Assembly (NCBI GenBank): GCA_903835075.1
Contig: CAILLM010000008.1
Coordinates: 25,498 to 89,497 of the forward strand
DNA length: 64,000 nt
Direction: 5' to 3'
DNA from: Candidatus Staskawiczbacteria bacterium
GTDB lineage: Bacteria; Patescibacteriota; Minisyncoccia; Minisyncoccales; Staskawiczbacteraceae
Each line of letters opens with the position of its first letter. Position 1 is the stretch's first letter. Position numbers and translations under genes: made by a program. Below, piece by piece: positions 31,032 to 51,970 of this stretch. Under the pieces are notes generated by a model. That model saw only the letters and a list, made by a program, of their open reading frames with translations. It was not told the DNA's origin and ran no database searches.

Positions 31032-31164
31032 TTAAAAAATAACTTACTATTGGTATTTAAACATCGAAAACGCTTATCTCGCACCCTTCATTAAAAAAAT
31101 AAATAAAAGGCTGTTTAATTGATTTGTAAAAATTCCCATTATTTAATAGCCTTTTTATATTTAT

Positions 31165-33224: not shown

Positions 33225-34370
33225 TTACATACTAGTTGCACAAACCGTAGAAGCAAGAGTGGCTTCTGATGAATTTCCCTGACTGTCAAATGCCTTAATA
33301 CTAAAATTATAGGTGTTGCCAGAGGTGGCATCATTCCATGGCTTTGACCAATCATTTTTACCATTTCCCGATGCCTGCAATGCCAAACCTGCTTCAGGAA
33401 ATTTGTCTGCAACGGCATTTCCCTTATCAAAAGCCGTAACACTGCTTATGTCGTTTGCACCCGTTACTGTAGCTGAAAATTGTATATGCCCGTTACTGTC
33501 ACAAACAACTGATGCATTTGTTATACTGGGGCCAGATGATGACAATACTGAATGGGCATTACTAATAATTTCTTGGTTTTGATTTGTATCTATAACTATT
33601 TGAATTTGCCTGCCTGCTCCAGCATAAAATCCCTTTGAGCTGATTTCAAATTTTTTGGTAGTCCCTTCTGTATAAACACTGGCAGTTGTGGAATAAGTGA
33701 TACCTTTGTCATCATCAAGAATAGTATCAAAAGAAATTGAGCAATCATCACATTTATCTAAATCACAACCATGTGTAGGATCTGTTGTAGTGCCTACTTT
33801 ATAGCCCTGAAATGGCGCGCTAAAAGAAGCGTCCGTAGATGGCTTGCACCTTGTACTTGAGTCATTATTAGTAGCATTGTTGTTACAATAGTTTGTAGTG
33901 TTAATATATTCTCCATGTATCATAGCACACAGACCTCGTGCCACACTTGCCACACAATATCCGTTGACACAAAATGGGTATGGCGAAGAACATCCTGCGT
34001 TATTTCGACAAGAAATTCCATTGCTTGGCTGAACCTGCCTATCGTAATAAAGAACTTTCTCTATTCCGCTGTCAGCGCTATAAAGGCCAACCACAGAGTT
34101 ACCTATATTTCTCATTACTTTCATTTCACTATACAAAAGTGTGCTAATAGACACAACTACTGCCAAAATAATTATCATTATAAATAAAGTGATAATCAAA
34201 GAAACACCTTTTTGATAATTTAAAGTTTTAAGCTTTTTCACATTGTTCTGAGCTCGCACCCTTCTTATGAAAAATATATAAAAGGCTGTAAATAAAGTGA
34301 TAATTAAAGAAACCCCCTTTTCAGAATTTTTAATTTTTAATTTTAAATTTTTAATTAAATAAGCAATCAT
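33225..34370 (-). CDS. Pilin-like secreted protein with Cys-rich and Ig-like C-terminal domains; candidate pilus-associated adhesin / atypical minor pilin
   Basis: N-terminus carries two copies of the prepilin-like hydrophobic segment KGVSLIITLF (a ~105-bp tandem duplication, 34183-34335) lacking Glu5. Followed by a Cys-rich region (CRNNAGCSSPYPFCVNGYC...CDLDKCDDC) and Thr/Ser-rich beta-type repeats. Lies directly downstream of three minor pilin genes. Confidence 0.4.
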   Translation of the reverse strand: MIAYLIKNLKLKIKNSEKGVSLIITLFTAFYIFFIRRVRAQNNVKKLKTLNYQKGVSLIITLFIMIIILAVVVSISTLLYSEMKVMRNIGNSVVGLYSADSGIEKVLYYDRQVQPSNGISCRNNAGCSSPYPFCVNGYCVASVARGLCAMIHGEYINTTNYCNNNATNNDSSTRCKPSTDASFSAPFQGYKVGTTTDPTHGCDLDKCDDCSISFDTILDDDKGITYSTTASVYTEGTTKKFEISSKGFYAGAGRQIQIVIDTNQNQEIISNAHSVLSSSGPSITNASVVCDSNGHIQFSATVTGANDISSVTAFDKGNAVADKFPEAGLALQASGNGKNDWSKPWNDATSGNTYNFSIKAFDSQGNSSEATLASTVCATSM

Positions 34371-35120
34371 TTATTTTATATTAAGGTTTCTTTGTGAAAC
34401 TGTTGTTTGGACTGTTGTTGTAGTTAAGCACCTGTGAGTAGATACATCACACATATCCCCCAGAGGGCAAACAGTAATTGGAGAACAATTAACATTTGTC
34501 GCTTGATTGTCATTGGAAACACCAATATTAAAAAGCATTGTCACCCTTGGCTGAACCGTGTCTGCATTTGAAGCTCCACAGCTGGTGGGATTATCAGCAC
34601 AACCCTGCCCCGCAACCGTGCCGTCTTTCCCATTAATAGAAAACTTAACATAATTTATTTTCAAACCCGCAGAAGTAATTGCTATGGCACCATCATTGTT
34701 GCTTGCCCTATAACCAGGCTCGCTACCCTTTAATTCTTTTAAAACTGGATGCAATGAATCTGCGGTGTTATCTATATAAAATTCCTGACAGTCCCCACTT
34801 GATTGATTAAAAAATCTTATGCCCTCAAAAGTTTGATTATCATTGTCGTGATCTGTTAACAAATAAATATATCCTTTTGGAACACAACTTCCATTAGCAG
34901 TATTGTCTACTGCCGCCATTCTTAATGCTTTTGACATATATTCTTCCACATAACTAATTTGGCTTATAAGTTGCTGTTCAGATAAAACTTTTTTTTGATT
35001 TTGTACAACTGAAATAAAAATGCTAATTGCAACTCCAATTATAAACAAAAATACCCCCATTACAACAATTACTTCTATTAAGGTAAATCCCAAATTGGTT
35101 TTATTTTTTTTAAAAAACAT
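34371..35120 (-). CDS. Type IV minor pilin / pseudopilin (prepilin-type N-terminal cleavage/methylation domain)
   Basis: N-terminus NLGFTLIEVIVVMGVFLFIIG is the class III signal with G|FTLIE. Confidence 0.7.
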   Translation of the reverse strand: MFFKKNKTNLGFTLIEVIVVMGVFLFIIGVAISIFISVVQNQKKVLSEQQLISQISYVEEYMSKALRMAAVDNTANGSCVPKGYIYLLTDHDNDNQTFEGIRFFNQSSGDCQEFYIDNTADSLHPVLKELKGSEPGYRASNNDGAIAITSAGLKINYVKFSINGKDGTVAGQGCADNPTSCGASNADTVQPRVTMLFNIGVSNDNQATNVNCSPITVCPLGDMCDVSTHRCLTTTTVQTTVSQRNLNIK

Positions 35121-35130
35121 ATTTTAAATT

Positions 35131-36126
35131 TTAAGGACTAATAGTGGTCACTGTTATTATGCAGTCTTGTGTTGTTCCGTCAGCGGCGGTAATAGTATAG
35201 GTCACAGGGCTTGAAAAATCATGTTGTTGATGGCTATCTATGCCAACATCTCCGCTTGTTTGCGGGTAGCCGTCAACTGTCACCAAATTACCAGTTGTTG
35301 AGAAAACTGCAGTTAAGTCATGTACATCTACTCCATAATTTGACGATGGTGGGATATTAACATTGATTCTGTGAGGATTTACATTTTCATCTTTTTCATC
35401 AGTTTCACCTGTGGCTGTATAGCCAAAGTTAAAAGTAGTAAAATATTTTGCAGAACCAAGCACTGGATACCAATTATAAAGCGTTCCTTCTGTAGTTATG
35501 CAATTAGAAACATTAAAAGGACAATTATCAGCCCCATCATCGGGGCAACATTTTATTGCCAAAACTCCAGGACTAAGAATTGTTGATTTTTTATCCCAAG
35601 AGGTTTGAACCTTAACCTTTAAAATATGGGGGGTTGGATTATCATCGATATCTTTAATTGGCTCAATTATTATCCTTCTTTTAAATTTTGTTTGCGGTAA
35701 ATTATCATCAGTTGTGGGATAAACATATAAACCCTTATCATTTAAATGCAAATAATCTGAGTTAGAGTTTGAAGTTCTAAGCATTGCAGTTGAAGTATAG
35801 TCTGCCCTACACGAGTTAGTGCCACTATTACTCATACAATCAATTGCTTGGTTAAGCCCAGATAAGGTGAGCCCATCAACCCAAGAAGCCGGACAAGTGT
35901 TACTGGGAGCAATTGCGCAAGCATTCATATCTAACCAATTTGTATCTCTTATATTTCTAACTATTTCCATACCCTCCTGAGATAAATAAGTTGCCGTAAG
36001 CCTGTCAGAAGAATCGGAAGTTAAAATCATTACAACAGAAAGTGCATTAAAAATCCCTATTACAGCAATAGACAAAACAAAAATAGAAACTACAAGTTCA
36101 ATAATGGTAAATCCTTTAGAATTCAT
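35131..36126 (-). CDS. Type IV minor pilin / pseudopilin
   Basis: N-terminus MNSKGFTIIELVVSIFVLSIAVIG. Confidence 0.7.
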   Translation of the reverse strand: MNSKGFTIIELVVSIFVLSIAVIGIFNALSVVMILTSDSSDRLTATYLSQEGMEIVRNIRDTNWLDMNACAIAPSNTCPASWVDGLTLSGLNQAIDCMSNSGTNSCRADYTSTAMLRTSNSNSDYLHLNDKGLYVYPTTDDNLPQTKFKRRIIIEPIKDIDDNPTPHILKVKVQTSWDKKSTILSPGVLAIKCCPDDGADNCPFNVSNCITTEGTLYNWYPVLGSAKYFTTFNFGYTATGETDEKDENVNPHRINVNIPPSSNYGVDVHDLTAVFSTTGNLVTVDGYPQTSGDVGIDSHQQHDFSSPVTYTITAADGTTQDCIITVTTISP

Positions 36127-36131
36127 ATAAT

Positions 36132-36788
36132 TTATTGCACATTTATTAACCCCGATGTATTGACTTTAACAGCCCTGGTGGCAAGGTCTATATTTTTGAA
36201 ACCAACTTCAACTTCTGTTTTTAAATTATTAGGATCAGAAATATTAAGATTATCAATTTTTGTAACTGGCCCTGGGGGGCTAAAATTTATGCTCGTTATG
36301 CCGTTACTAATAATATTAGAAATTGAGTTTATATATAAACTAGAATTTTTTTGAGATATATCAACCACCTCCAAAACGCAATCAGTTGTTCGGGCATAAT
36401 CTTCTGTTTGGGTGGAGACTTCACTGCAAAGAGGATATGACAAATCACCATCATATTTTTGTGTACCCACCCTAACCCCACTATTGTTTTCTGGCCCTGC
36501 CACATCAGCATATATTACATATTCACTTTTATTGTTTGGAAGATTAAAATAAATACCATAACCCTGCACCATTATGGAATAACCATTTTTATCTTTTAAG
36601 GCAATCCCAGACAGACCCAAATCTTGGGCTTTCCTTAAATCTTGAGCAAAATTATAAGAAACCCTAGAAAGTGCAAGTTGTCTTAACATTTTTGGAAAAT
36701 CAGAAATTAAAATAATTGTAAACAAAGCTACAATAAAAATCACCACAACAACCTCAACCAACGTAATACCACGTTCAAATTTCTTCAT
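36132..36788 (-). CDS. Type IV minor pilin / pseudopilin (GspH/FimT-like)
   Basis: N-terminus RGITLVEVVVVIFIVALFTIIL. Confidence 0.65.
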   Translation of the reverse strand: MKKFERGITLVEVVVVIFIVALFTIILISDFPKMLRQLALSRVSYNFAQDLRKAQDLGLSGIALKDKNGYSIMVQGYGIYFNLPNNKSEYVIYADVAGPENNSGVRVGTQKYDGDLSYPLCSEVSTQTEDYARTTDCVLEVVDISQKNSSLYINSISNIISNGITSINFSPPGPVTKIDNLNISDPNNLKTEVEVGFKNIDLATRAVKVNTSGLINVQ

Positions 36789-37552
36789 ATTATAAAAAAA
36801 TTCAAGTACCAGCTAATTATTTGATTACCATGAAGCATAGCTATAAAAGTTCCTGCAATTAGAAACGGGCCAAAAGGTATTGCACTTTTTAGGCTTTTAT
36901 TTTGCCCCAACATCAACATTAAGCCTATTATAGCACCAAAAAAGAATGCCAAAAACAAAGCCACCAAAACATTAGGAAACCCCAATAAAATCCCCATTAA
37001 AAAAACTAGTTCCACATCCCCAAAACCCATTGCTTTTTCTTTAGATATCCAAAAAATTAAAAAGAAAACTCCAGAAGCAATTAACGTTGCTAAAATTGTG
37101 GATAATAAATATTGGCCGTTATACGGTGGGATTAAATTATAAATTATTGTAATTATAATAGCAGGAAATAATGCCACCTCTGGTATTAAATAATGCTTTA
37201 AATCATAAATAAAAATTATAATTAAAAAAATACTTACAATTAAATAAAAAATGGATTGTAAAATGTTTTGAGGATTGAAAATTAACAAAAATAAAATACC
37301 TGTTGCTAATTCTACTAATGGGTATTGAATTGATATTTTTTTATGGCAATAACGGCATTTCCCACGCAAAAATAAAAAGCTTAGCAAGGGAAAAAGGTCT
37401 TGCCAGCTTAAAATATGTTTGCAATGTGGGCAAAAAGATCTACCATTTATGCTTTTCTCTTCTTCCACTCTATAAACCATGCAATTCAAAAAACTGCCAA
37501 TACATAGTCCAAAAAGAAAAATAAAAATATTTATTAATAAGTTTAAAATCAT
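36785..37552 (-). CDS. pilD: Prepilin peptidase (A24 family, PilD)
   Basis: N-terminal CPHC...CRYC zinc tetrad, polytopic membrane domain, conserved GFGDVELVFLMG region. Confidence 0.85.
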   Translation of the reverse strand: MILNLLINIFIFLFGLCIGSFLNCMVYRVEEEKSINGRSFCPHCKHILSWQDLFPLLSFLFLRGKCRYCHKKISIQYPLVELATGILFLLIFNPQNILQSIFYLIVSIFLIIIFIYDLKHYLIPEVALFPAIIITIIYNLIPPYNGQYLLSTILATLIASGVFFLIFWISKEKAMGFGDVELVFLMGILLGFPNVLVALFLAFFFGAIIGLMLMLGQNKSLKSAIPFGPFLIAGTFIAMLHGNQIISWYLNFFII

Positions 37553-37620
37553 TAGGTTATTTTATCATTTTTATAAATAAAAAACACCCCAACAAAGGGG
37601 TGTTTTTATTATAGCCCTTA

Positions 37621-38043
37621 CTACTGACAGGTAAAATGCGTAGCTGAACAAGCTACATTAGCTCCCTTATAGCCTGTGTTATCAACGCAATAGCTGCTAT
37701 ATGTTCCACCAGAAGGCATTGTAGGAACTACTCCACACCATGCCTGAGGGTTTGTATCGGTACTGGCCGCCCCATAACAGGTTAGCGTTCCACCGGCACC
37801 ATTTACTGCAGTAACGATCGAAGTAGCAGTAGCGCAAAAAGCTAAGCCAGTGTATGTATTATCAGGAGTGTCATAATATACTGCTGCATTTGTTAATAAT
37901 GTTGACAAATTACCCTGGATTGCCGCTGCCTTTCCCTTGTTGATGTATTGGGTAACGTTAACCAATACTATTCCTGCCAAAACTGCAATAATAGCAATAA
38001 CCACAATTAATTCTATAATTGTAAAACCTTTTTGTTTATTCAT
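37621..38043 (-). CDS. pilA: Type IV major pilin (PilA-like), copy 2
   Basis: MNKQKGFTIIELIVVIAIIAVLAGIV class III signal; 140 aa with C-terminal Cys pair. Confidence 0.75.
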   Translation of the reverse strand: MNKQKGFTIIELIVVIAIIAVLAGIVLVNVTQYINKGKAAAIQGNLSTLLTNAAVYYDTPDNTYTGLAFCATATSIVTAVNGAGGTLTCYGAASTDTNPQAWCGVVPTMPSGGTYSSYCVDNTGYKGANVACSATHFTCQ

Positions 38044-38194
38044 ATTTTTATTATTTATTTTTTAATTATTTTAAATTTTTCTAAAATTTCGGAAGTCGAC
38101 CTATACCCAATTAAACAGAATTAATTGAGCGTTTTATAGTTTCTTTTATTTTACAAAATTAAAGCATTACAAGCAATAGCACATTTGTGGATAA

Positions 38195-38701
38195 CTATGG
38201 ACACTGATACAAACTTGAATCAAATGCTGAATTTTCTTCCACGTCCTCTTTCATGCCCCTACTGTCCACGCAATAAACATTTTCAGAATTTAAAAAATCT
38301 CTTGCCCAAGCCTTCCAGGCCTGACCAGTATTGGGGTCAACACTACAACAAAGCCCTGCTGGGTTGCCCGCGCCCTCACCTCTTCCTGTAGTTGCCCATG
38401 TAGTAGTATCAACTGGATCATAATAGCAATCTCCATTTATATTTTTGGGCATTTGGGAAATAACATTTTTTATTACATTGTTTGATTCTGGTTCACAAAA
38501 ATCAGTATAGCTGTTACTATTACCATTATAAAAAACTTCTCCTGCTGGAATTAAAATTGCTAAATTACCAGCTATATTTGAATCTTTCCCCTTACTTATA
38601 TATTGTGTAGTAGTAACTAAAATTATTGCAGACAAAACTGCAATTATTGCCACCACCACAACCAACTCTATTAAGGTAAAACCCTTATATTTTTTAATCA
38701 T
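38195..38701 (-). CDS. pilA: Type IV major pilin (PilA-like), copy 1
   Basis: MIKKYKGFTLIELVVVVAIIAVLSAIIL; 168 aa, Cys residues in the C-terminal region. Confidence 0.75.
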   Translation of the reverse strand: MIKKYKGFTLIELVVVVAIIAVLSAIILVTTTQYISKGKDSNIAGNLAILIPAGEVFYNGNSNSYTDFCEPESNNVIKNVISQMPKNINGDCYYDPVDTTTWATTGRGEGAGNPAGLCCSVDPNTGQAWKAWARDFLNSENVYCVDSRGMKEDVEENSAFDSSLYQCP

Positions 38702-39906
38702 ATTGTTCCAAGTGCTCCATAGAGCGGTTCTATTACCGAAATTGCTAAAAATGCAACGCCAATGCCCATAAAAACAATCAAAATTGGCTCTAAAAGTGAT
38801 GTAAACGTTGCAATTGCTCTTTGTACTTCTTTATTATAGAAATTAACTATTTGCATTAAGTTTTTGTCTAAAGTTCCTGTTTCTTCACCAACTTGTACCA
38901 TTTGAACCACAAATGCAGGAGCATAATCGGGATATTTTACCAAAACAGAGCTTATTTTTTCTCCTTCAGAAACTCTTTCTTCGGTTTCAGCTAGAATTCT
39001 CATATAAACAGAATTGCCAACAATGTCTTTTGTAATTTTTAATGCATTAGTAATTGAAAGGCCTGCTCCAATTAAGGTGGAAATATTTTCAGCAAATCTG
39101 ATTAAAAATGTTTTCTTAAGAAACCCTCCAAAAAATGGTATTTTTAAAGAAATTTCATCCCAAGTTTTTCTGCCCTCTTTGGTGGTAAAATAATATATTA
39201 TTCCAGCCAAAATAGCAGCCACTCCAAGTATTAGAACCCAACCATAACTTCCTAAAAATCCGTAGAAATTAATCATTGCCTGAGTAAATGCAGGCGGTTT
39301 TGAGGTTGTTTCTTTCAACAAATCAACAAGCTTTGGCATAACAAACAAAACAACTATTGGAAGCACTATCAACATAATAAAAATAACAAAAGCAGGATAA
39401 ATCATAGCTCCTGTTATTTGAGATGATATATCAGCTTCTCTTTCTAAGTGATCTGATAGGTAAGACAAAGATTCAGAAATTTTTCCCGATGCTTCTCCGG
39501 TTTTCATCAAGCTAATATAAAAAATATTGAACACTTCTGGGTATACAGCCAATGCTTCTGACAAAGGACTTCCCTCTTCAACCAATTGAGCTACTTTAAA
39601 AATTTTTTCTTTGAATGCAGGATTTTTTACTTGCAAAGACAAACTTTTTAAACTTTGCGTAACTGGCACCCTAGATTGCAACATAACTGATAATTCTCTT
39701 GAAAATATTGCTAAATCTTTTTTGGAAACTTTATTTAAAAAACCAACATTTTCCGAACGAAAAATTAAAGGACTTTGCTCTTTTATGGATGTAACATAAA
39801 TATTATATTTTTGTAAAAGAAGTGCAGCTGCATCTTTAGATGAAGCTTCCACTGTCCCTGTTTCCATTTTCCCTTCTTTACTTCTAGCCTGATAAAAATA
39901 TTTCAT
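38698..39906 (-). CDS. pilC: Type IV pilus assembly platform protein PilC (GspF family)
   Basis: 402 aa, two GspF repeats, three TM segments. Confidence 0.85.
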   Translation of the reverse strand: MKYFYQARSKEGKMETGTVEASSKDAAALLLQKYNIYVTSIKEQSPLIFRSENVGFLNKVSKKDLAIFSRELSVMLQSRVPVTQSLKSLSLQVKNPAFKEKIFKVAQLVEEGSPLSEALAVYPEVFNIFYISLMKTGEASGKISESLSYLSDHLEREADISSQITGAMIYPAFVIFIMLIVLPIVVLFVMPKLVDLLKETTSKPPAFTQAMINFYGFLGSYGWVLILGVAAILAGIIYYFTTKEGRKTWDEISLKIPFFGGFLKKTFLIRFAENISTLIGAGLSITNALKITKDIVGNSVYMRILAETEERVSEGEKISSVLVKYPDYAPAFVVQMVQVGEETGTLDKNLMQIVNFYNKEVQRAIATFTSLLEPILIVFMGIGVAFLAISVIEPLYGALGTI

Positions 39907-39912
39907 TTAAAA

Positions 39913-40977
39913 TTAACGTAATAAATTCCTTACTTCTGATGGGTCCACAGCGTAATCCATAGCATTTTTCAAAGATATTTCTTTTCTTCTAACCAAATCA
40001 ACCATTGCTCTATTGGAAGAAATCATTCCCTCTTTTGACGAAGTTTCTATAACAGCAGGAATTTCATGTATTTTATTTTCTCTTATTAAGTTAGAAACTG
40101 CATTATTGTTTATCAAAACTTCGCAAACAGGAATAAACCCACCCTTAATCCTTGGAATCAATCTTTGAGAAACAACCCCCAAAAGAGAAGACGACAATTG
40201 AAATTTTATTTGGTCTTGTTGTTCAGCAGGAAAAACATCAACTATTCTGTGAATTGTTTGAGCAGCAGAATTAGTGTGTAATGTTGCAAAGACCAAATGA
40301 CCTGTTTCAGCAGCAGTTATGGTTGTAGCAATTGTTTCTAAGTCTCTCATCTCTCCCACCATAATTACATCTGGGTTTTGACGAAGCGTTGCTCGCAAAG
40401 CATTGTTAAAATTCAAAGTATCAATTAAAACTTCTCTTTGATCAATAATTGCCCTGTCTGTAGGATAAGTGTATTCAATTGGGTCTTCAACTGTAATAAT
40501 GTGTACAGCCCTAGTATGATTTATTTCATCAATCATGGCTGCCAATGTTGTAGATTTTCCTTGGCTAGTGGCTCCAGTTATTAAAATTAACCCCTGCGGA
40601 CGAGCCAAAAAATCGTGCAAAATTGGTGGCAAACCAAGCTCTTCTATTGTTCTTATTTTAGAAGGTATAAAACGTAAAGCCAAGCTTATGCTACCTCTTT
40701 GAAAAAATATATTTACACGGAATCTACCCTTGTCTTCGTGCTGGTAAGAAAAATCTATTTCTTTTTCTTCCATAAATTTCTTTTGTTGTAATTCTGACAT
40801 TATAGAAAGAGCCATACCCTTAGAATCTTCTGGTGTAACTATCTTTTCTTTGCTCAACGGAACAAGCTGACCAGTTATGCGTATGTTTGGAGCGTGGCCC
40901 ACAGAAATATCTATGTCAGAAGCTTCCTCCTGAACTGCTGTGTCCAAAAGTTTTTTTACATATGTTAAATAATCCAT
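39913..40977 (-). CDS. pilT: Type IV pilus retraction ATPase PilT
   Basis: 354 aa. Walker A GATSQGKST, Asp box, His box GHLVFATLHTNSAAQT; no GspE N-terminal extension. Confidence 0.85.
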   Translation of the reverse strand: MDYLTYVKKLLDTAVQEEASDIDISVGHAPNIRITGQLVPLSKEKIVTPEDSKGMALSIMSELQQKKFMEEKEIDFSYQHEDKGRFRVNIFFQRGSISLALRFIPSKIRTIEELGLPPILHDFLARPQGLILITGATSQGKSTTLAAMIDEINHTRAVHIITVEDPIEYTYPTDRAIIDQREVLIDTLNFNNALRATLRQNPDVIMVGEMRDLETIATTITAAETGHLVFATLHTNSAAQTIHRIVDVFPAEQQDQIKFQLSSSLLGVVSQRLIPRIKGGFIPVCEVLINNNAVSNLIRENKIHEIPAVIETSSKEGMISSNRAMVDLVRRKEISLKNAMDYAVDPSEVRNLLR

Positions 40978-41026
40978 AAGTTAAAATTTTAATATTATAT
41001 TTTAAACTTTTAGTTTAAAATTCCGG

Positions 41027-42766
41027 CTATATATCTCTTTCTTCAGTAACCCTAACCACTTCTTCAATTGTAGTGACACCATTTAAAACCTTTAATATTC
41101 CTTCTTGTTCCATTGTAAGCATGCCCTGTTTTTGAGCTACTTTGAAAATTGCACTTTCCATAGGGTTGGTTTGTATCAACTGTGCCAGCTCATCTGTCAT
41201 AGATAAAACTTCATAAAGACCCACCCTACCCGTGTATCCTATAAACCCACAGGACTCACATCCTTTTGCTGTATATAATAATAATGGGTCATCTATTTTT
41301 AAATCTTTCTTTTCAGATGCGGGAATACTTTTTACTCTTTCTAAAATATAATTTTTTATTTTATCTGATGGATTTATTTTTATTTTACATTGCGGACACA
41401 AAGTTCTGACAAGCCTTTGTGAAATAACCACTCGCAAAGTAGATGGAATTAAAAATGGTTTTACACCCATATCTATTAACCTTGGCACCACGCCAGTTGA
41501 CGAGTTTGTGTGCAACGTAGACAAAACAATATGTCCAGTTAATGCAGCATTTATAACCAAACTAGCTGTTTCCTCATCTCTAATTTCTCCAACCATTATA
41601 ACATTAGGGTCTTGTCTTAAAATTTGTCTCAAACCTTGTGCAAAAGTATAACCTATTTCTGGTCGCACCTGAGACTGGTTAATCCCTGCAATAGAATATT
41701 CTACAGGGTCTTCTATGGTAACAATATTAACTGAATCTTGATTCAAAATACGCAAAATTGCATATTGGGTTGTTGTTTTTCCAGATCCCGTAGGCCCTGT
41801 AAACAAAATCATTCCATATGGTTTTTTTATTGCGTCTTTAACAATTTCCAAACTTCTTGTAGAAAGACCTAGTTGTTCAAAAGTTCTTAATCCAGTTGAA
41901 GGATCCAAAACCCTAAGTTCAGTTTTTTCACCATATAAAGTTGGAAATGTAGCAACCCTAAAATCAATTTCTTTATCATTTATTTTTGTAGAAAATCTTC
42001 CATCTTGAGGAATTCTATTTTCATCTATTTTCAAACCAGAAAGAATCTTAATTCTGGCAACAATAGCCAAGTGAACTTTTAGTGGCAAGGTCAAATTTGA
42101 ATACAAAATACCTCCAATACGAAAACGTACAATTAGCTTGTCTCTATTTGGTTCTATATGCACGTCAGAAGCACCGCTTTCAACTGCATGCCTCAATATA
42201 ACCAAAACCATTTTTATGATTGGGGCTTCTTCTGTTTTTGTTTCGTCTAAGTTGGTTTGGCTTAAATTATCTAATATTTTCTCGGTTTCTTCAGGTAAAG
42301 TTTCCAACACTTTCTTTGTTTCAGTAGATATATTTTTTCTTTGTTTCAAAAGCCTTGCCAAATCTCCTGGGGTTATTAAACATGTTTTATATTTAAAATT
42401 TTCTTGATTAGCCAAAAATCTTAAAGCATTTTGCGCAACAATGTCTTCAGGGTAAACCATGCCAATCATCAAATAATTTTTCTGGCCGTCTAAGTCTTTT
42501 TGTATGGCCATTATTTTATAATTAACAGAAGCTTCTTCTGGTATTAATTCTAAAATATCAGACGATATTTGGTCTGCATCAACTTTTACAAGATTAATTC
42601 CTAAAACTTTACTCTTTAAATCAAAAAGTGTATCTTCTGTAACAATATTATCTTCCAAAATTAAATCCTCCTCTGTTTTTCCGAGTTTTTTTACCTTTTT
42701 TTTATAATCATTCATTTGACTCTCAGATAATAAACCTTGAGCAAATAATTCTTGTAGTAGTTTCAT
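41027..42766 (-). CDS. pilB: Type IV pilus assembly ATPase PilB (GspE family)
   Basis: 579 aa. GspE_N-type N-terminal domain, Walker A GPTGSGKTT, tetracysteine CPQC...CESC motif, His box. Confidence 0.9.
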   Translation of the reverse strand: MKLLQELFAQGLLSESQMNDYKKKVKKLGKTEEDLILEDNIVTEDTLFDLKSKVLGINLVKVDADQISSDILELIPEEASVNYKIMAIQKDLDGQKNYLMIGMVYPEDIVAQNALRFLANQENFKYKTCLITPGDLARLLKQRKNISTETKKVLETLPEETEKILDNLSQTNLDETKTEEAPIIKMVLVILRHAVESGASDVHIEPNRDKLIVRFRIGGILYSNLTLPLKVHLAIVARIKILSGLKIDENRIPQDGRFSTKINDKEIDFRVATFPTLYGEKTELRVLDPSTGLRTFEQLGLSTRSLEIVKDAIKKPYGMILFTGPTGSGKTTTQYAILRILNQDSVNIVTIEDPVEYSIAGINQSQVRPEIGYTFAQGLRQILRQDPNVIMVGEIRDEETASLVINAALTGHIVLSTLHTNSSTGVVPRLIDMGVKPFLIPSTLRVVISQRLVRTLCPQCKIKINPSDKIKNYILERVKSIPASEKKDLKIDDPLLLYTAKGCESCGFIGYTGRVGLYEVLSMTDELAQLIQTNPMESAIFKVAQKQGMLTMEQEGILKVLNGVTTIEEVVRVTEERDI

Positions 42767-42799
42767 TGATAAAAAATTTTAATTTTAATTTTTTAATTT

Positions 42800-43258
42800 T
42801 TATGGCGTTGTTGATGAAGCTGCCGCAGGAGTCACTGGCGGTACAACGGGAGCTGCCACAACAGTATAATATGGCACAAAAGGATTGTCTCTGCCAAGCT
42901 TAACTTCTTCTAAGAAAGTTACCGTTAACCCCATCCCCTCTAATGTTTTTTTTGCTTCGTCTACTGATTCAGCAGAGATAAACCCTGTTTCAACAATTTT
43001 GCTTCTATTCAATGCCCTATAATTGTACTGGAATCCCATAACAGGAGAATCATGAAGATTTCTGAATCTCTGAGAATCAAAAATACTCATATCAATGTTG
43101 ATTTTTGATTTATTAAAAACTACTGATGGTGAAACTGCTTTTGGCTTAGCAAAAAAAATTCCCAAAGAAATAAATCCTATAAACAATAAAAATCCCAATG
43201 TGATTATCACAAAAAATGCCCTTTGTCTTTTCTTTGGTGATATAAAAACTACTGCCAT
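42800..43258 (-). CDS. Membrane-anchored hypothetical protein in the pilus cluster (possibly PilP-like)
   Basis: N-terminal TM, Pro/Val-rich C-terminus; assigned only by position between pilB and the pilO-like gene. Confidence 0.3.
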   Translation of the reverse strand: MAVVFISPKKRQRAFFVIITLGFLLFIGFISLGIFFAKPKAVSPSVVFNKSKINIDMSIFDSQRFRNLHDSPVMGFQYNYRALNRSKIVETGFISAESVDEAKKTLEGMGLTVTFLEEVKLGRDNPFVPYYTVVAAPVVPPVTPAAASSTTP

Positions 43259-43263
43259 GCTTT

Positions 43264-43794
43264 TTAGTATGAATAAGTTTTTACTTGTAAACTAAAATTA
43301 TATGGTGGCCCTGATTGCGTTCCAAAAGAAATGCTAGTTACTTCAAAAATTCGTGAGGAATCCTCTAGGGCAATCATAAATCCTTCAAGCGAAGGGTAAC
43401 CCCCCAATAAATCTAGAGAAAAAGTTATTTCTTTAGTGGTTGCCCCTTTGCTAGCAGTTCCACCCTGTGCTGATTTTGACAAAAATAAACTTTTTACAAT
43501 TAAACCATTTTTCTTGGCTGTTTCCTGTAAATAATAAACTGTTTTGCCAAGATTTGGATCTGAAGACAGGGCGTCATCTATTTTTCCAATATCGCTTTTT
43601 CTATTTTCTAAATCATAATAAATTTTGTCTATTGCTGCATAATAATCGTGCTGGGCAACATATTCTGCCATTTTTTCTCCAAGTTGCGACTGTAACTTCT
43701 TAAATGTGTTGTATTCTGGCATTACTAGAAAAAATACCAATAACAAAATTATTATAACAATTAAGCCAATAGCAATGGGTCTATCAAGTGTCAT
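43264..43794 (-). CDS. PilO-like type IV pilus biogenesis protein
   Basis: N-terminal TM, coiled-coil, C-terminal ferredoxin-like region; size and position match PilO. Confidence 0.45.
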   Translation of the reverse strand: MTLDRPIAIGLIVIIILLLVFFLVMPEYNTFKKLQSQLGEKMAEYVAQHDYYAAIDKIYYDLENRKSDIGKIDDALSSDPNLGKTVYYLQETAKKNGLIVKSLFLSKSAQGGTASKGATTKEITFSLDLLGGYPSLEGFMIALEDSSRIFEVTSISFGTQSGPPYNFSLQVKTYSY

Positions 43795-43798
43795 ATAA

Positions 43799-44878
43799 TT
43801 ATTTTCTAGGAATGCCGTTCATATTTTTTTTATTTCGACCTCTTATTAAAAACAAAGCAACAAGTAAAATTATTACTACCGCAACCACAACTAACCCCAA
43901 TATAATTATAATTTTAGAATTACTGGATTTATTATTTTTTTGATCAACGGCAACCGGAGGGGCTAATATCACTTTTACCTGATAATTCTGAGCTGAATTG
44001 TCTGAAGCAATAACGCTATAAGTTACAGGCTCTGTGAAATCTTGTGGGAGAAGAGAAGCAGGCGCCACCGTTGTTCCAGGAGAAACTACTATGGCAGGAG
44101 TTAAATTCTTGATATCTGTATCATGCGGGACAGTTAATGTGATTATATGAGTTGTTTGATCTACCTGCCCTATAACTTCTGGGTCTAACAAAATATGGAA
44201 TGATGTTATTAACTTTTGACCATTATTAATGAGAGTAACGGCTGGTTGTTTTGTACTTGGCGGGGCGGTATTAGTGATTACAAGTGGCGTTGTTGTGGTT
44301 GCAGATTGTTCCGATGTTGCACTATTCTGTGCTGAAGCTATGTCGGAAAGATAATTAAATATAGAAGAATCTAACACAAGCCCTATATTAAACTCTGTTC
44401 TAGCAGACTGACCCAATGAAGAGTTAAATGTTCCTATATTTTTAACATATTTATTTTGTTCAAGTGAAGCAACCTGCCTAGAAAAAGCATCTAAGTTATC
44501 TGATTCGCCATTTAGCTGCACAGCTCCATTTTTTTCATCTAAGCTGAACTGACTAAACCAAATATTCGGCATGGTTTGCGCTTGCATAAAAGCGAAAACG
44601 TTAGAAGCAAACTCATGATTTTTCAACAACACTGTAAAATCATTAATTTTTTTCTGATAACTCATGACTTCTGTTTCATGTTGTTTTTGTTGTAGGGTGC
44701 CTACACCTTGTAAGGATGTCGCCTCATCTTTAATTTGCTGTCTTATCATTCCATTTTTAAACATAAAAATAAAATAACAAAGAACTGTAGCTATCAACAG
44801 AGACATCACAAAATAGAAGATGACATCCATCCACCAGAATTTCTTGGTCCTTAGTTGAAAAATCACGGAAAGGTCCAT
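43799..44878 (-). CDS. PilN-like type IV pilus biogenesis protein with extended Thr-rich C-terminal region and C-terminal TM
   Basis: N-terminal short cytoplasmic segment, TM and coiled-coil as in PilN. Lies between the pilM and pilO-like genes. Confidence 0.4.
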   Translation of the reverse strand: MDLSVIFQLRTKKFWWMDVIFYFVMSLLIATVLCYFIFMFKNGMIRQQIKDEATSLQGVGTLQQKQHETEVMSYQKKINDFTVLLKNHEFASNVFAFMQAQTMPNIWFSQFSLDEKNGAVQLNGESDNLDAFSRQVASLEQNKYVKNIGTFNSSLGQSARTEFNIGLVLDSSIFNYLSDIASAQNSATSEQSATTTTPLVITNTAPPSTKQPAVTLINNGQKLITSFHILLDPEVIGQVDQTTHIITLTVPHDTDIKNLTPAIVVSPGTTVAPASLLPQDFTEPVTYSVIASDNSAQNYQVKVILAPPVAVDQKNNKSSNSKIIIILGLVVVAVVIILLVALFLIRGRNKKNMNGIPRK

Positions 44879-44938
44879 TTCTATTTATTTATTATACCTG
44901 CCCGTCTACAGGCAGGCAACTAATTAGTTTGATATGCA

Positions 44939-46054
44939 TTACGTTTCTAGCCCACCTAGGGCCACGCCCATTGCCACTGAAAAGCTTGGTGCTATTTTCT
45001 CAAGAGTGTTTCCCAAAATTGGCGGATACAAAAGCTCGGAGAAGCAATTTGGAATTTCTACTTTTATTTTCAAAACTTCAGCAAAATACTCTTTAAGGCC
45101 TGGTAAATTTGAAGTGCCACCTGTTAAATAAATTGCGTCTATTTCTTTTCCTTCTTGTTGATAAAAATCAGATAATACTTTTTTAACTTCAATTATCAAA
45201 GGGTCAATTAATAAATACAAAGTTTTAGAAATTTCTTCCTTAGAAGAGGTCAGTCCTTCTTTATTTTTCAATTCTTCTGCTTGTTCATGACCCAAATCTA
45301 AAGCCGAAGCAATACTATATGTAAGCTGGCTTCCTGCAAAATTAAAACTATAGCTTTTCTTCAAAGAACCTTTTCCAATAATATTAATGGTTGTGCTCTG
45401 AACTCCAATGTCTATTAAGCAAACATAATTTCGATTCCCTCTAACCAGTGACCTCACCAAACCCAAAGCTTCCGCCTCTACAGCATAAAGGTCTATACCT
45501 GCCAATTGAGCGACTTTTTGATAATCTTGGATTACTTGGTTTGGGATCGCAACCAAAAATATTTTAAGTCCAGACTGTTTATCCCCTGGGGTGCCACCTA
45601 TTAATTGCCAATCTAGTGTTGTTTCTGAAACTGGTAATGGTATGTACTGAGACGCATTGTAATAAACCGCATCTTTTAGTTCATTTGCATTCATTGGCGG
45701 TAATTCAAAAGATGTGCAAAAAGTTGAAAAATCTGGGATTGAGAATATTACTGCCCTTGTCTTTATTTTTGCCTCATCTAAAACAGCTCTCACTGCCCTA
45801 GAAACAAAATAATTAGAAAGTAAATAGCTCCCCTTTTCTACGCCACGAAACGGCTCTTTATAAAGAGAAGATGACTTAATTTCTGCATAATTCTCTAATG
45901 TTTTTCCCTGACCCCAGCGCGACAATTCTACAACCTTAATTCCAGCTGTACCAATATCAATTCCTACCATTTTTTTAGGGAAAAACATCTTCAAGGGATT
46001 AGAGAAAATATTCAATTTATCTATATTAAATTTTTCAAGCGGATTTGATGCCAT
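44939..46054 (-). CDS. pilM: Type IV pilus assembly protein PilM (actin-like ATPase)
   Basis: MVGIDIGTAGIKVVEL N-terminus, FtsA/actin-like fold, 371 aa. Confidence 0.8.
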   Translation of the reverse strand: MASNPLEKFNIDKLNIFSNPLKMFFPKKMVGIDIGTAGIKVVELSRWGQGKTLENYAEIKSSSLYKEPFRGVEKGSYLLSNYFVSRAVRAVLDEAKIKTRAVIFSIPDFSTFCTSFELPPMNANELKDAVYYNASQYIPLPVSETTLDWQLIGGTPGDKQSGLKIFLVAIPNQVIQDYQKVAQLAGIDLYAVEAEALGLVRSLVRGNRNYVCLIDIGVQSTTINIIGKGSLKKSYSFNFAGSQLTYSIASALDLGHEQAEELKNKEGLTSSKEEISKTLYLLIDPLIIEVKKVLSDFYQQEGKEIDAIYLTGGTSNLPGLKEYFAEVLKIKVEIPNCFSELLYPPILGNTLEKIAPSFSVAMGVALGGLET

Positions 46055-46094
46055 AATTAATTTTATTATATAATTAAATCAATACAAAAACACT

Positions 46095-46829
46095 GTGGAT
46101 AACTTTAAAGACTTTTTGCTCAATTTAATCTTCCCAAAATTCTGCTTGGGGTGCCAAAAAGAAGGCATTTATTTGTGCGATGATTGTCGACATGTTTTAG
46201 ATATTAATGAATTCAATTACTGCCTTTGTGATAATATGCCCAATCGCCTTCCCCAAAATCAAACAAGTGGCAAGTGTAGTAGATGCCAAAACAAAAATCT
46301 TTCTGGGATTTATTCTGCCCTTTCTTACAAACAACAACTAGTTAAAAAATTAATTTATCAATTTAAATATCAGCCATATTTAAAAGACTTATCACAAACT
46401 TTAGCAAGTATTGTTGTAGAGTGCTTATTTTTAGCAGGAAAAAATACAGAAGAAGTTTGGCAAAACTCTATTTTGATTCCCGTGCCCACAGATAAAAAGA
46501 AATTAAAAAATAGAGGATACAACCAATCTAAAGAATTAGCTGAAGAATTATCAAAAATTTTAAAAATTCCTGTAGTTACCGACACATTAATTAAAATTAA
46601 ACCAACAAAACCCCAAATGGAATTAAATAAAATTGAAAGAGAAAAAAATTTACTGGATGCTTTCTGTATAAATACAAATTTGGCTAAGTCCGACTTAACC
46701 AAATTTTCTAAGATATTTTTAGTTGATGATGTTTATACAACGGGATCTACAATGGAAGAATGTGCGAAAATTCTTAAGCGCGCCGGAGCAAAAGAAATTT
46801 GGGGTATCGTGATTGCTCGCGAAGGCTGA
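46095..46829 (+). CDS. comFC: ComF family competence protein (ComFC-type phosphoribosyltransferase with N-terminal zinc finger)
   Basis: CLGCQKEG...CDDCRH and CSRC zinc-ribbon Cys pairs; C-terminal PRTase motif IFLVDDVYTTGSTM. The start is a GTG. Confidence 0.8.
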   Translation: MDNFKDFLLNLIFPKFCLGCQKEGIYLCDDCRHVLDINEFNYCLCDNMPNRLPQNQTSGKCSRCQNKNLSGIYSALSYKQQLVKKLIYQFKYQPYLKDLSQTLASIVVECLFLAGKNTEEVWQNSILIPVPTDKKKLKNRGYNQSKELAEELSKILKIPVVTDTLIKIKPTKPQMELNKIEREKNLLDAFCINTNLAKSDLTKFSKIFLVDDVYTTGSTMEECAKILKRAGAKEIWGIVIAREG

Positions 46830-50464: not shown

Positions 50465-51970
50465 CTACAAATTCTCCGTATGGTCACGGATAACTTTCAT
50501 AAATTGCCTGCCAAATTGCTCTAGTTTACGGTCGGCTACGCCGTAAATTTCCAAAAAATCTTCTGGGGTTTCTGGCATATCTTTGGCCATTTGGATTAAA
50601 GCTCTATCGCCAAAAACTACATAGGGTGGCACGTGCAGACGTTGCGCTTCTTGAGTTCTTAATATTTTTAATTTTTCAAACAATGTTTTATCATAATCTT
50701 CATTTTCAATATCAACTTGTTGCGCCAATGTATTTTTTACTCCACTAAGAAAAGAAGGCAATCCTGAATTACTGTTAGTCGCAGACTTTCCCACGCATTT
50801 ATCACAATTCCCGCAATTTTCTTCTTGGTAATCTTCATTGAAATAATTAAGCAAAAATTTACGCCGACAGCTGTTTAAATTTCCATAATTTAAAACCTGA
50901 TTAAGATTTTCCTGAGCCTTTTCCCGTTCATCATAGTCTTTGATATTATTTATGAAATAATCCTGCTTAAATTTATCAGCATATGAAAAAAATAAAACGC
51001 ATTTAGCCGGCAACCCATCTCTTCCCGCACGTCCGGTCTCCTGATAATAACCTTCAATAGATTTTGGCAAACTGTGATGAATAACCAGTCTCACATCGGG
51101 TTTATCTATTCCCATCCCAAAAGCAATTGTGGCAACAATAATGCCAACTTCGTCCTTAATAAATTTTTCCTGATTTTCTTTTCTAGTTTTGGCATTCAAC
51201 CCAGCGTGGTAAGCAGCGGCACTAAAACCATAACTTTTTAATTTACCCACCATTGCTTCGGTATCATTACGCGAAAAGCAATAAATAATTATACTGGAAT
51301 TTTTATGCTCGCGCACAAGATTTAAAATTGAAGCAAAAGAATCTTTTTTAGGCAACACTTCATAGCTTAAATTCGGGCGATTAAAACTGGAAATAAACAT
51401 TTTGGGATTTTCAAGTGAAAGCTGTTTTACAATATCTACCCGCACTTCTTCGGTAGCGGTGGCTGTTAGTGCAATAATCGGAACGCCGGGAAAATTTTCG
51501 CGCAACACTGTTAAATTGCGATATTCTGGTCTAAAATCATGCCCCCATTGCGAGATACAATGGGCCTCGTCAATTGCAATAACGTTAATGCAAAGAGCAT
51601 GTAAAAAATCTTCAAATCCAGGAACGCCAAGTCTTTCGGGAGCTATATAAATAATTTTTAATTTTCCAGTACTCGCACGTTCCATAACTTCCGCATTTTT
51701 TTGGGGTGTAAGACTGCTGTTAATAAAATCAGCCGAAATACCATTCGCAACAAGTGAATCCACCTGGTCTTTCATTAACGAAATAAGAGGAGAAATTACA
51801 ATTGCAACGCCTTCTAAAATCAAGGCCGGCAACTGAAAACACAAAGATTTTCCGCCTCCCGTGGGCATCAAAACCACAGAGTCATTCCCCATCAACACCC
51901 TTTCAATAATTTCTTTTTGTAACGGCCGAAATGTTTCGTATCCAAAATATTTTTTTAATATATTTTCCAT
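50465..51970 (-). CDS. recQ: ATP-dependent DNA helicase RecQ
   Basis: DEAH box (DEAHCISQWGHDFRPEY), helicase motifs I-VI, zinc-binding RQC Cys cluster and C-terminal HRDC-like region. ATG at 51970; the track start at 52006 is a TTG. Confidence 0.9.
   Translation of the reverse strand: MENILKKYFGYETFRPLQKEIIERVLMGNDSVVLMPTGGGKSLCFQLPALILEGVAIVISPLISLMKDQVDSLVANGISADFINSSLTPQKNAEVMERASTGKLKIIYIAPERLGVPGFEDFLHALCINVIAIDEAHCISQWGHDFRPEYRNLTVLRENFPGVPIIALTATATEEVRVDIVKQLSLENPKMFISSFNRPNLSYEVLPKKDSFASILNLVREHKNSSIIIYCFSRNDTEAMVGKLKSYGFSAAAYHAGLNAKTRKENQEKFIKDEVGIIVATIAFGMGIDKPDVRLVIHHSLPKSIEGYYQETGRAGRDGLPAKCVLFFSYADKFKQDYFINNIKDYDEREKAQENLNQVLNYGNLNSCRRKFLLNYFNEDYQEENCGNCDKCVGKSATNSNSGLPSFLSGVKNTLAQQVDIENEDYDKTLFEKLKILRTQEAQRLHVPPYVVFGDRALIQMAKDMPETPEDFLEIYGVADRKLEQFGRQFMKVIRDHTENL

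Follow-up and report, generated by a model that had tools for sequence, protein, structure and literature searches.

What has happened to the 5' end of the last gene of a type IV pilus (T4P) operon, which codes twice for the start of a mature pilin? The question is raised by a stretch of 64,000 nucleotides (nt) of Candidatus Staskawiczbacteria DNA (assembly GCA_903835075.1, contig CAILLM010000008.1, positions 25,498 to 89,497 of the forward strand), termed here the window, whose own numbering is used for all coordinates. Its pilus block, at 33225-46829 (13.6 kb), ends with a gene for a PilX-like protein of 381 amino acids (aa). Two KGVSLIITLF segments are present near the amino terminus of this protein, as had been noticed in an earlier reading of the letters alone (the sequence-only reading). 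We attribute this arrangement to a short palindromic DNA element, named X, and privilege an explanation that we consider likely as a whole: a pilus operon lacking a secretin, a PilX protein of the tip type, an insertion of X accompanied by duplication of ~70 nt of its target, and a long leader that is tolerated.

Anatomy of the insert in the pilX-like gene

The coding strand reads, in order, ATG 34370, leader 1, A1, X, 15 nt, leader 2, A2 and the rest of the gene (Table 1). A1 and A2 form a direct repeat of 56 nt with 80% identity and a spacing of exactly 108 nt. The sequence of X is unrelated to the one that follows A2, the structure being A-X-A and not AB-AB. The insert amounts in total to 108 nt, the 37 nt of X plus ~70 nt of duplicated target, and is in frame and free of stop codons. 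The sequence-only reading had described a tandem duplication of ~105 bp at 34183-34335; what is found instead is the 56-nt repeat flanking the unrelated 37-nt X, and Tandem Repeats Finder reports no period of 105-108 nt at this 5' end.

The identical 381-aa gene is found on 15 contigs from several samples and with several styles of contig name (k141_, -scaffold_, Logan), which rules out the assembly artefact that had been named as a way to refute the duplication. All 8 loci for which DNA is available have the same arrangement, so that the variation in copy number that was to be looked for is absent. An extension of the X type is also carried by the homologues P0004, P0009, P0010, P0013 and P0022 and by the gene of locus L023, which are 39-47% identical overall. 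Its consensus is ...G VSLIITfF / TAfYiFfirRVrAxNN..K.K.L...G / VSLIITfF IMIII. The DNA of X is nearly identical among the window, L009 and L010, a likeness that extends to third codon positions and to the codons AGG, GTG and CGA, which are rare.

A second copy ahead of ftsW and empty sites in relatives

Another copy of X separates ligA from ftsW, 3.2 kb from the first and likewise with a period of 108 nt. The ATG of the ftsW relic, at 31139, lies exactly 108 nt upstream of the ftsW ATG at 31031. The nearest relatives of the window by BLASTP of LigA are the loci L077 (89%), L078 (87%) and L079 (83%), with 90.8%, 87.6% and 85.3% identity, respectively, in global alignment. Their pilX-like genes have short leaders (MVQNSKNKKG/VSLIITLF...) without X, the empty site reading ...ATTATCACATTGTTTA/TCATGATAATT, where the slash marks the junction. 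The ftsW gene overlaps or abuts the ligA stop in L078 and L079, and an acyltransferase gene lies between the two in L077. No X was detected in 39 kb of syntenic DNA of the three loci. Since the sites are empty in these relatives, both copies of the window are insertions relative to the closest relatives known.

The two sides of the second copy have different affinities. Its A2 (MGIISSQIRKLDWG) corresponds to the FtsW amino terminus of the L079 type and its A1 to that of the L077/L078 type. The FtsW protein of the window (29940-31031) shares 82.9% amino acid identity with that of L079 versus 78% with those of L077/L078, while LigA, PilD and RpoB show the opposite order of affinity. This suggests that ftsW was replaced by recombination with X as a boundary. 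No clear breakpoint is seen at the nucleotide level inside ftsW, where all relatives are 75-79% identical.

Distribution, period and target site of X

X can be described as a palindromic INTERSPERSED element of 37 nt, perhaps up to ~42 nt, whose arms CAGCCTTC and GAAGGGTG form an imperfect palindrome. Its census combined a degenerate pattern run over 185,579 species representatives, a looser pattern run over a metagenome collection and a hidden Markov model (HMM) of the core. The degenerate pattern retrieved four copies, at unrelated sites of one Staskawiczbacteria metagenome-assembled genome (MAG), and the looser one 61 metagenomic loci with many different neighbour genes, among them atpD, nusB, an L28-like gene, an ABC ATPase gene and clpB-like and hisS-like genes. 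Copies found with the HMM differ at 2-3 of the positions that the pattern restricts. No match to X was found in viral contigs.

A flanking repeat accompanies X at other loci too. At 34 of 63 distinct loci, the 20 nt immediately 5' of X are found again downstream with at least 15 of 20 nt identical; random control positions gave a positive result in this test in 20 cases out of 1320. The period is 107-112 nt in 31 of these 34 loci (108 nt eleven times, 109 nt nine times), and the best period of the loci below threshold tends to 105-115 nt. The target motif of the reconstructed insertion sites is TTTR/HAA, the slash being the insertion point, with T at -2 in 31/33, R at -1 in 32/33, A at +3 in 24/33 and no G at +1. 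X occurs in both orientations relative to genes, with ~16 copies at 5' ends and ~15 at the 3' ends of convergent genes. The duplicated segment is usually a gene start (the start codon and 19-81 nt at the beginning of the gene) or the end of a convergent gene (its final 19-58 nt and the stop); the gene end disrupted by X is therefore restored.

Two arrangements of X stand apart. Locus L054 (1206-1530) has three tandem copies spaced by 105-106 nt (X-69 nt-X-69 nt-X), the last two "spacers" being identical 69-nt copies of the flanking target; this mini-array suggests repeated insertion or unequal crossing-over at one site. A subfamily (CAGCCTCC...) with extended conserved flanks is found in L019 (1427-1463 and 3146-3182), L020 and L065. 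These copies are in reverse orientation, and a GGAGG is located 14 nt upstream of the gene starts, which belong in L019 to an NYN-domain-like gene and to a gene for a large membrane protein.

Several functions of X were considered and disfavoured. The idea of a structured RNA or hairpin is weakened, as the window copy folds no better than shuffled sequences (z 0.1); the consensus folds at -11.9 kcal/mol (z -3.1), and variants of the 5' arm are not accompanied by compensating changes while the 3' arm, GAAGGGTGCRAGC, hardly varies. Neither window copy is covered by a sigma-70-like site or a terminator, and X is found in both gene orientations, which speaks against a promoter or terminator. A transposon of the IS200/IS605-like, single-stranded DNA type is disfavoured by the absence of bias with respect to local GC skew (19 vs 27, p 0.30) and by the presence of a duplication. 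The Rfam 15 scan of the window gave only 4 tRNAs at the gathering threshold, and nothing credible at E<=10 over 34050-34450. The 3' arm, often followed by GTT (GAAGGGTGCGAGC, window 34252-34264), may resemble the universally conserved 16S rRNA segment GGAGGGTGCAAGCGTT / GTAGGGTGCGAGCGTT just 3' of the 530 loop, next to helix 18, and CAGCC may resemble its 5' side; the fetched DNA contains no 16S gene, and the Rfam scans gave no small-subunit rRNA match. The literature search returned nothing relevant on target-site duplication in the Candidate Phyla Radiation (CPR) or on the core sequence of X. As far as the Rfam, literature and viral searches reach, we could not find a previous description of the element.

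Probable start codon, leader and maturation of the PilX-like protein

The 21 gene starts examined between 21848 and 46054 are all ATG and none has a Shine-Dalgarno (SD) motif, the upstream regions being A/T-rich; initiation in this region of the window seems not to be led by SD sequences. No gap separates ATG 34370 from the stop of the minor pilin gene upstream. The ancestral start of A2 is ATG in L023, P0041 and P0009 and CAG in the window; in L009 the interval from X to A2 is devoid of in-frame start codons. Each of the six X-bearing genes of full length (window, P0004, P0009, P0010, P0013 and L023) has an insert that is open and in frame; P0022 begins inside A1. Because SD motifs are lacking, the ATG abuts a stop, the A2 start is CAG and the insert has no stop, we infer that translation begins at ATG 34370 and yields a leader of 55 residues.

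This leader would be composed of a K-rich amino terminus, 16 hydrophobic residues and then RRVRAQNNVKKLKTLNYQK-G. Its hydrophobic stretch probably stays on the cytoplasmic side of the membrane, since both of its flanks are basic. PilD would cut between G55 and V56 to generate a normal mature pilin, so that the insertion would be tolerated. The X insert most likely just lengthens a leader that is cleaved off.

The 381-aa PilX-like protein

The protein is organized in a leader (residues 1-55), a helix (54-110), a Cys-rich lobe (~116-207), a four-stranded sheet (210-262) and an immunoglobulin (Ig)-like sandwich (282-371). Residues 54-104 weakly match positions 1-51 of the PilX_N profile (PF14341), with an E of 0.003 that is below the Pfam cut-off in score. 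The same profile is matched by 30 of 119 homologues at E<=0.01 (best 5.4e-6), and one homologue carries the NCBI name "PilX N-terminal domain-containing protein". The family has at least 180 members. Its amino-terminal consensus, QKG/VSLIITFFIMIIILAVVLSIS...YSEIKVIRNIGNSV..FYAADSGIEKVLYYD, is strongly conserved, as are the first 200 residues, and six cysteines are conserved; the carboxyl-terminal third is hypervariable. The hydrophobic, pilin-like start without Glu5 and the Cys-rich domain that the sequence-only reading had described are confirmed in the sequence: the predicted mature protein begins with VSLII, with I and not Glu at +5, and is the last of a four-gene minor-pilin set.

A small module of four cysteines, C-x5-C-x6/7-C-x4/5-C, is located just past the pilin helix (window residues 120-140). 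The window protein has a single copy, some homologues have 2-4 and others have none (P0015 and P0024 were compared), so that it is a knottin-like insert of variable copy number.

AlphaFold2 with the family alignment gave a model with a mean predicted local distance difference test (pLDDT) of 81, in which the helix spans 55 residues and the four-stranded sheet is antiparallel. A second model of residues 56-265 alone (pLDDT 85) has the same lollipop topology. A Foldseek search of the PDB with the full model returned Ig-like domains only (SiiE BIg, 8.7e-4), and the core model had no significant match there (best E 0.27). The PilX-like profile, compared with the sequences of PDB chains, gave only spurious ubiquitin and Ig matches. 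Neither a PilY1-like propeller nor a von Willebrand factor A domain was found by Pfam or Foldseek. With regard to the structure prediction that had been proposed as a check, the lollipop model is consistent with a pilin fold, and the core has no significant match in the PDB. The model also corrects the "Ig-like repeats" of the sequence-only reading, of which one, the carboxyl-terminal beta-sandwich, is retained, the other part being a four-stranded sheet of the pilin type.

The product most likely resides at the very tip of the pilus, because it lacks Glu5 like GspK and PilX. There it would present its disulfide-rich lobe and hypervariable Ig-like domain to a ligand. Position and architecture are those expected of a tip minor pilin, in agreement with the tip-adhesin proposal made earlier; the adhesin function itself is plausible by analogy.

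Proposed mechanism of insertion and alternative explanations

X is inserted after a TTTR/HAA site in the signal-peptide coding region, together with a duplication of ~70 nt of target. It is probably either a non-autonomous, selfish insertion element or a site at which an integrase makes cuts ~70 bp apart. A duplication so long and nearly fixed in length would require two cleavages, or a copying step, ~70 bp apart (~6.5-7 helical turns), set by a molecular ruler. Long duplications are known to us only from IS1634-type elements, in which they vary, and fixed ones of the ruler type only from Cas1-Cas2; X fits neither. Ruler-like staggered cleavage or copying of ~70 bp would let X survive within 20-80 nt of either end of essential genes. 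We advance as a possibility, and tentatively, that X marks a new mechanism of DNA insertion characterized by a palindrome of 37-42 nt, the TTTR/HAA target, a ruler-like duplication of ~70 bp and spread by recombination.

A number of observations weigh against the insertion hypothesis or the role proposed for the protein. Coding differences between A1 and A2 outside PilX genes comprise 96 synonymous versus 18 non-synonymous changes, or ~58 versus 11 when one locus is counted per orthologous group, and nearly every codon is synonymously changed at several loci (9:0 in nusB, 7:0 in L061). Mostly non-synonymous differences would be expected of a neutral copy, and the 96:18 excess leads us to reject A1 as a neutrally decaying relic. 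A1 and A2 agree best at the junction (identity 0.90) and fall to background by ~60-70 nt. To account for this pattern one has to assume, in addition, that other lineages contributed by recombination or that A1 is under selection. The search pattern itself fixes or restricts some two thirds of the 37 nt of X, so its conservation is overstated. No autonomous partner, transposase or integrase, was identified for X and none was sought, and we know of no characterized transposition system that makes a near-constant target duplication of ~70 bp. With regard to the protein, the PilX_N score is under the Pfam cut-off (17.9 versus 25.5 bits), its cleavage site, tip location and ligand are predictions, and the hydrophobic stretch of 16 residues in the leader could disturb membrane insertion.

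Exchange of X-bearing alleles between diverged lineages by homologous recombination would, in our view, be the most economical reading of the flanks. The leaders at A2 of the PilX genes are homologous in all X-bearing lineages (NNxRKFKILKxExG) and those at A1 are lineage-specific, A1 and A2 being equal only in L009 (67 nt, 97% identity). The A1 leader of the window, IKNLKLKIKNSEKG, resembles the native leader of P0116, a homologue without X. The X-bearing PilX genes are scattered in the family and are not mutual nearest neighbours. When orthologous loci are compared, conservation is only slightly lower in A1 than in A2. After a founding insertion, X and the gene body would serve as homology for exchange between lineages, and the sequences on the two sides of X would then often originate from different lineages. 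Recombination in naturally competent hosts would leave the native gene end as a relic on one side of X and an imported end on the other.

The alternatives concern either the origin of X or the role of the gene. Replication slippage within the pilX-like gene, giving a local tandem duplication of possibly variable copy number, would provide two in-frame copies of 56 nt placed 108 nt apart. This is scarcely credible, given the A-X-A structure in which Tandem Repeats Finder sees no array, the invariant copy number in 8 loci and the further X ahead of ftsW; it is refuted by the presence of X at more than 60 unrelated loci, each with its own flanking repeats. Mis-assembly can also create repeats, but a chimera is a negligible prospect for a gene recovered unchanged from several samples under several naming styles, and whose architecture recurs in homologues of 42-47% identity from other samples. 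X could rather serve its host as a regulatory or recognition sequence (a recombinase site, an RNA element, a promoter or an operator) conserved since an early ancestor, the flanking repeats being a by-product of its copying between genes or lineages by recombination. X is indeed highly similar among loci that share only 72-90% identity in their flanking coding DNA, its nearly invariant 3' arm and the uncompensated changes of its 5' arm point to recognition of sequence rather than structure, it usually precedes the start codon by 45-55 nt, with a GGAGG before the ATG in one subfamily, and ftsW to its right has a discordant phylogenetic affinity. We nevertheless consider a host site unlikely, because X lies in both orientations relative to genes, follows a specific insertion motif with an insert of constant length, is missing from the syntenic DNA of the nearest relatives and is scattered among PilX homologues instead of being limited to a clade. 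Moreover, no sigma-70-like promoter or terminator covers the window copies, Rfam has no match, and part of the conservation is forced by the search pattern.

The extension of the PilX-like protein could itself be functional: PilD, cutting at two prepilin sites, would free a hydrophobic and basic peptide of 36 residues, or, cutting only at the first one (G19/V20), would leave a membrane-retained form that regulates assembly of the tip complex. The open frame shared by the six full-length X-bearing genes, the G at -1 of both copies and the helix that AlphaFold2 places at residues 18-44 (pLDDT ~80) fit this proposal. It is nonetheless quite improbable, as the consensus X is open in all three forward frames (judged by eye), which makes an open frame cheap, the extension is missing from most of the family, the nearest relatives included, the ATG right after X in L023, P0041 and P0009 permits a normal short leader, and X inserts in the same manner at many unrelated genes where it is untranslated. 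The block might, alternatively, be mainly a Com-type pseudopilus for DNA uptake with the 381-aa protein as a DNA receptor, not a host adhesin. A comF gene is adjacent and divergent, recA, recQ, recG, ligA and ftsK are in the same window, and Saccharibacteria are naturally competent, Com proteins acting together with T4P in competent bacteria (PMC10633639). This is improbable as the main role, although DNA uptake and adhesion can coexist: the operon encodes a PilT retraction ATPase and PilM/N/O-like proteins, comEC and comEA were not found among the window ORFs scanned, and a hypervariable carboxyl-terminal domain suits a variable surface ligand better than DNA. In Saccharibacteria, host binding and T4P essentiality are also separable from competence (PMC11623550, PMC10633639). 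There, comEC is needed for transformation but com genes make no contribution to fitness, the essentiality of T4P appears unrelated to competence (PMC10633639), and pilin mutants of T4P-2 retain wild-type levels of competence (PMC11623550).

The pilus operon

By its gene content, 33225-46829 is a single type IVa-like, secretin-less pilus operon of Candidatus Staskawiczbacteria (Patescibacteria/CPR). It adds a system of a known kind, the usual CPR pilus machinery, here in Staskawiczbacteria. All open reading frames (ORFs) given by the sequence-only reading are present at the positions given; they are on the minus strand and closely spaced or overlapping. Coordinates and family profiles agree with its co-oriented block from pilM to pilD, its minor pilins and its divergent comF.

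Table 1. Features of the pilus operon, of the two X copies and of nearby recombination and repair genes, in window coordinates. Slashes in motifs mark predicted processing sites.
Feature	Position	Strand	Evidence or remark
X copy 2, between ligA stop (31165) and ftsW start (31031)	31077..31113	-	nhmmer E 3e-10
A1 of copy 2, relic ftsW 5' end ATGGGAATTTTTACAAATCAATTAAA (MGIFTNQL), 26 nt	31114..31139	-	FtsW N-terminal type of L077/L078
PilX_N-type minor pilin without E5, modular, 381 aa	33225..34370	-	PilX_N E 0.003; AlphaFold2 model
A2, downstream target copy, second KGVSLIITLF, canonical mature-pilin start	34181..34236	-	homologues without X start ~10 aa before motif
X copy 1, 37 nt, CAGCCTTTTATATATTTTTCATAAGAAGGGTGCGAGC	34252..34288	-	in frame as (T)AFYIFFIRRVRA; nhmmer E 6.6e-15
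A1, upstream target copy, first KGVSLIITLF	34289..34344	-	abuts X 5' edge exactly
Minor pilin, 249 aa (G/FTLIE)	34371..35120	-	N_methyl 3e-5; weak ComGE/GspG-type N-terminal matches
Minor pilin, 331 aa (G/FTIIE), DUF5018-like C-terminus	35131..36126	-	N_methyl 2e-5; PilV TIGR02523 1e-4
Minor pilin, 218 aa (G/ITLVE)	36132..36788	-	N_methyl 2e-4; weak ComGD/GspH N-terminal matches
pilD (prepilin peptidase)	36785..37552	-	A24_N_bact 3e-32; Peptidase_A24 1e-16
Pilin, 140 aa (KG/FTIIE)	37621..38043	-	N_methyl 7e-10; TIGR02532
Pilin, 168 aa (KG/FTLIE)	38195..38701	-	N_methyl 8e-9; TIGR02532
pilC (platform protein)	38698..39906	-	T2SSF 6.9e-57, two stretches; GspF/PilC models 1e-90, 2e-85
pilT (retraction ATPase)	39913..40977	-	TIGR01420 451 bits, cut-off 319
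pilB (extension ATPase)	41027..42766	-	T2SSE 7.5e-127 and MshEN; TIGR02538 2.9e-162
Membrane-anchored protein, 152 aa	42800..43258	-	no Pfam/NCBIfam match
pilO-like	43264..43794	-	PilO PF04350 E 0.0013, below cut-off, whole profile covered
pilN-like, C-terminal DUF5018-type Ig-like domain	43799..44878	-	PilN PF05137 E 0.003, below cut-off; DUF5018 1e-8
pilM	44939..46054	-	PF11104 5e-38; TIGR01175 175 bits, cut-off 133
comF-family (ComFC/GntX-like), divergent from pilM	46095..46829	+	Pfam Pribosyltran 6e-9, DZR_2 7e-5
uvrC	3507..4814		
recA	15372..16478		
ftsK	17822..20110		
recQ	50465..52006		
recG	54894..57158		

A class III signal, with G at -1, F/M at +1 and E at +5, is present in both pilins, and G/xTxxE in three minor pilins. 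The labels PilN-like and PilO-like are kept with reservation, as both profiles are matched below threshold (E 0.003 and 0.0013). A carboxyl-terminal Ig-like segment of the DUF5018 type (...PVTY.V/I.A.D...) is common to the PilN-like protein and the 331-aa minor pilin; the former also ends, atypically for PilN, in a second membrane segment. The "possible pilP-like gene" of the earlier reading, between the pilO-like gene and pilB, codes for the 152-aa protein, and this identification is rejected since Pfam and NCBIfam searches give no PilP signal. A weak precomputed match of the identical gene in L001 to PF28597 (T2SSF_N) likens the soluble part of this protein to the amino-terminal domain of PilC/GspF. 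The ComF-like protein matches NCBIfam TIGR00201 (comF) at 1.6e-25, with 90 bits for a cut-off of 233, and GntX at 2.6e-26, likewise under the curated cut-off. It is, from these profiles, a phosphoribosyltransferase with an amino-terminal double zinc ribbon that belongs to ComF at the family level only. No secretin (PilQ) domain was detected in the operon or among the scanned ORFs of at least 200 aa outside the block. The absence of a secretin is expected for envelopes without outer membrane, as in other CPR systems.

One or both small pilins, once processed by PilD, would form the filament; its assembly and retraction would depend on PilB, PilT and PilC, acting with PilM and the N/O-like proteins. 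The four genes that follow pilD are the core minor-pilin set. Locus L010, from a related genome, has four pilin genes versus two in the window, and a 568-aa protein bearing DUF2341 and Laminin_G_3 domains (8267-9973) takes the place of its third minor pilin. Judged by gene content, the minor-pilin set is modular between lineages.

Neighbouring genes and competence

Named homologues of the 381-aa protein and of LigA belong nearly all to Candidatus Staskawiczbacteria (Patescibacteria/CPR). The gene order pilD, three minor pilins, pilX-like, ligA and ftsW is conserved in every related locus fetched, where the pilX-like gene always closes the pilus operon directly ahead of ligA. The recombination and repair genes recA, ftsK, recQ, recG and uvrC are concentrated, with ligA, within 30 kb of the pilus/comF locus. 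A 906-aa ORF (672-3392), whose sole Pfam match is a Kre9/KNH-like Ig-like domain, possibly encodes another surface protein.

The sequence-only reading had suggested a search for comEC and comEA, which yielded none among the window ORFs of at least 200 aa scanned outside the pilus block. In view of the fitness and competence data of Saccharibacteria (PMC10633639, PMC11623550), it goes too far in calling T4P-based competence the established way for reduced-genome CPR bacteria to obtain DNA and nucleotides.

Significance

The interest of the locus rests on X rather than on the pilus genes. Very short, X is repeatedly found inserted in gene ends, and the gene survives thanks to the target duplication of ~70 nt. 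If it is truly mobile, its integration chemistry would be new and would imply a long, near-fixed stagger; X would also be a marker to trace recombination between CPR lineages, and some of the "extended N-termini" or "tandem duplications" at gene starts of CPR MAGs may be footprints of insertion. The pilX-like gene offers a natural class III signal peptide that tolerates an insertion of 36 residues. The 381-aa protein is a reasonable target in the search for host-recognition determinants of uncultivated Parcubacteria.

Comparison with known systems

X is short, non-coding, multicopy and found at unrelated loci like miniature inverted-repeat transposable elements, but its duplication of ~70 nt (period 107-112 nt) differs from the short, fixed target-site duplication of a known transposase family. 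Palindrome-associated transposable elements derived from IS200/IS605 and the repetitive extragenic palindromic (REP) elements with their REP-associated tyrosine transposases (RAYT) have no target duplication and show strand bias, whereas a duplication of target accompanies X at 34/63 loci and X shows no bias. Rickettsia palindromic elements, which occur in frame in genes, Neisseria Correia elements and REP or bacterial interspersed mosaic elements are small, non-autonomous insertion elements with a target duplication that is absent or of 2 bp (TA). X shares with them a short, palindromic, non-coding and multicopy nature and the ability to sit translated inside ORFs with the protein kept; it is much shorter (37-42 nt) and has a duplication of ~70 nt and a defined TTTR/HAA target. 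The usual target duplications are of 2-14 bp, which the long and variable direct repeats of the IS1634/IS1549 type, autonomous elements of 1.5-2 kb, far exceed as does X; X differs in its size of 37 nt and near-fixed insert length. An analogy can be drawn with spacer integration by Cas1-Cas2, a ruler-type process that duplicates the CRISPR repeat over a fixed 28-37 bp: a DNA of ~37 nt comes to lie between two target copies of fixed length, and L054 has a short array. Unlike in CRISPR, X always has the same sequence, the duplicated piece is locus-specific and of ~70 nt, copies are mostly single, no cas genes were seen and the L054 "spacers" duplicate the flanking target rather than being unique.

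GspK represents the class of tip (pseudo)pilins without E5. The 381-aa protein resembles the GspK/PilX class as the last of four core minor pilins, with G at -1, a helix without Glu5 and a size larger than that of its partners; it differs by a PilX_N match below threshold and by a globular part unrelated in sequence and with no significant Foldseek match. The operon as a whole is similar to T4P-1 and T4P-2 of Saccharibacteria in its PilB, PilT, PilC, PilD, PilM and small GFxxxE pilins (PMC11623550, PMC10633639), as well as in its several elaborated minor pilins, lack of secretin and nearby com genes. It differs in belonging to Staskawiczbacteria, on the Parcubacteria side, with one locus seen and all parts in a 13.6-kb operon, and in a PilN-like protein with an extra Ig-like domain and a second membrane segment. 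In Saccharibacteria, the largest minor pilins are PilX1 and PilX2, which have a non-canonical signal peptide and accessory carboxyl-terminal domains; cells need PilX2 to bind the host efficiently (PMC11623550). Their accessory domain is a jelly roll or a seven-bladed propeller, in contrast to the Cys-rich lobe and Ig-like sandwich found here. The 381-aa protein is likened to them by architecture, not by sequence homology: it too is the largest minor pilin of its locus, a candidate tip adhesin with an E5-less signal and a lollipop core that carries a carboxyl-terminal accessory domain.

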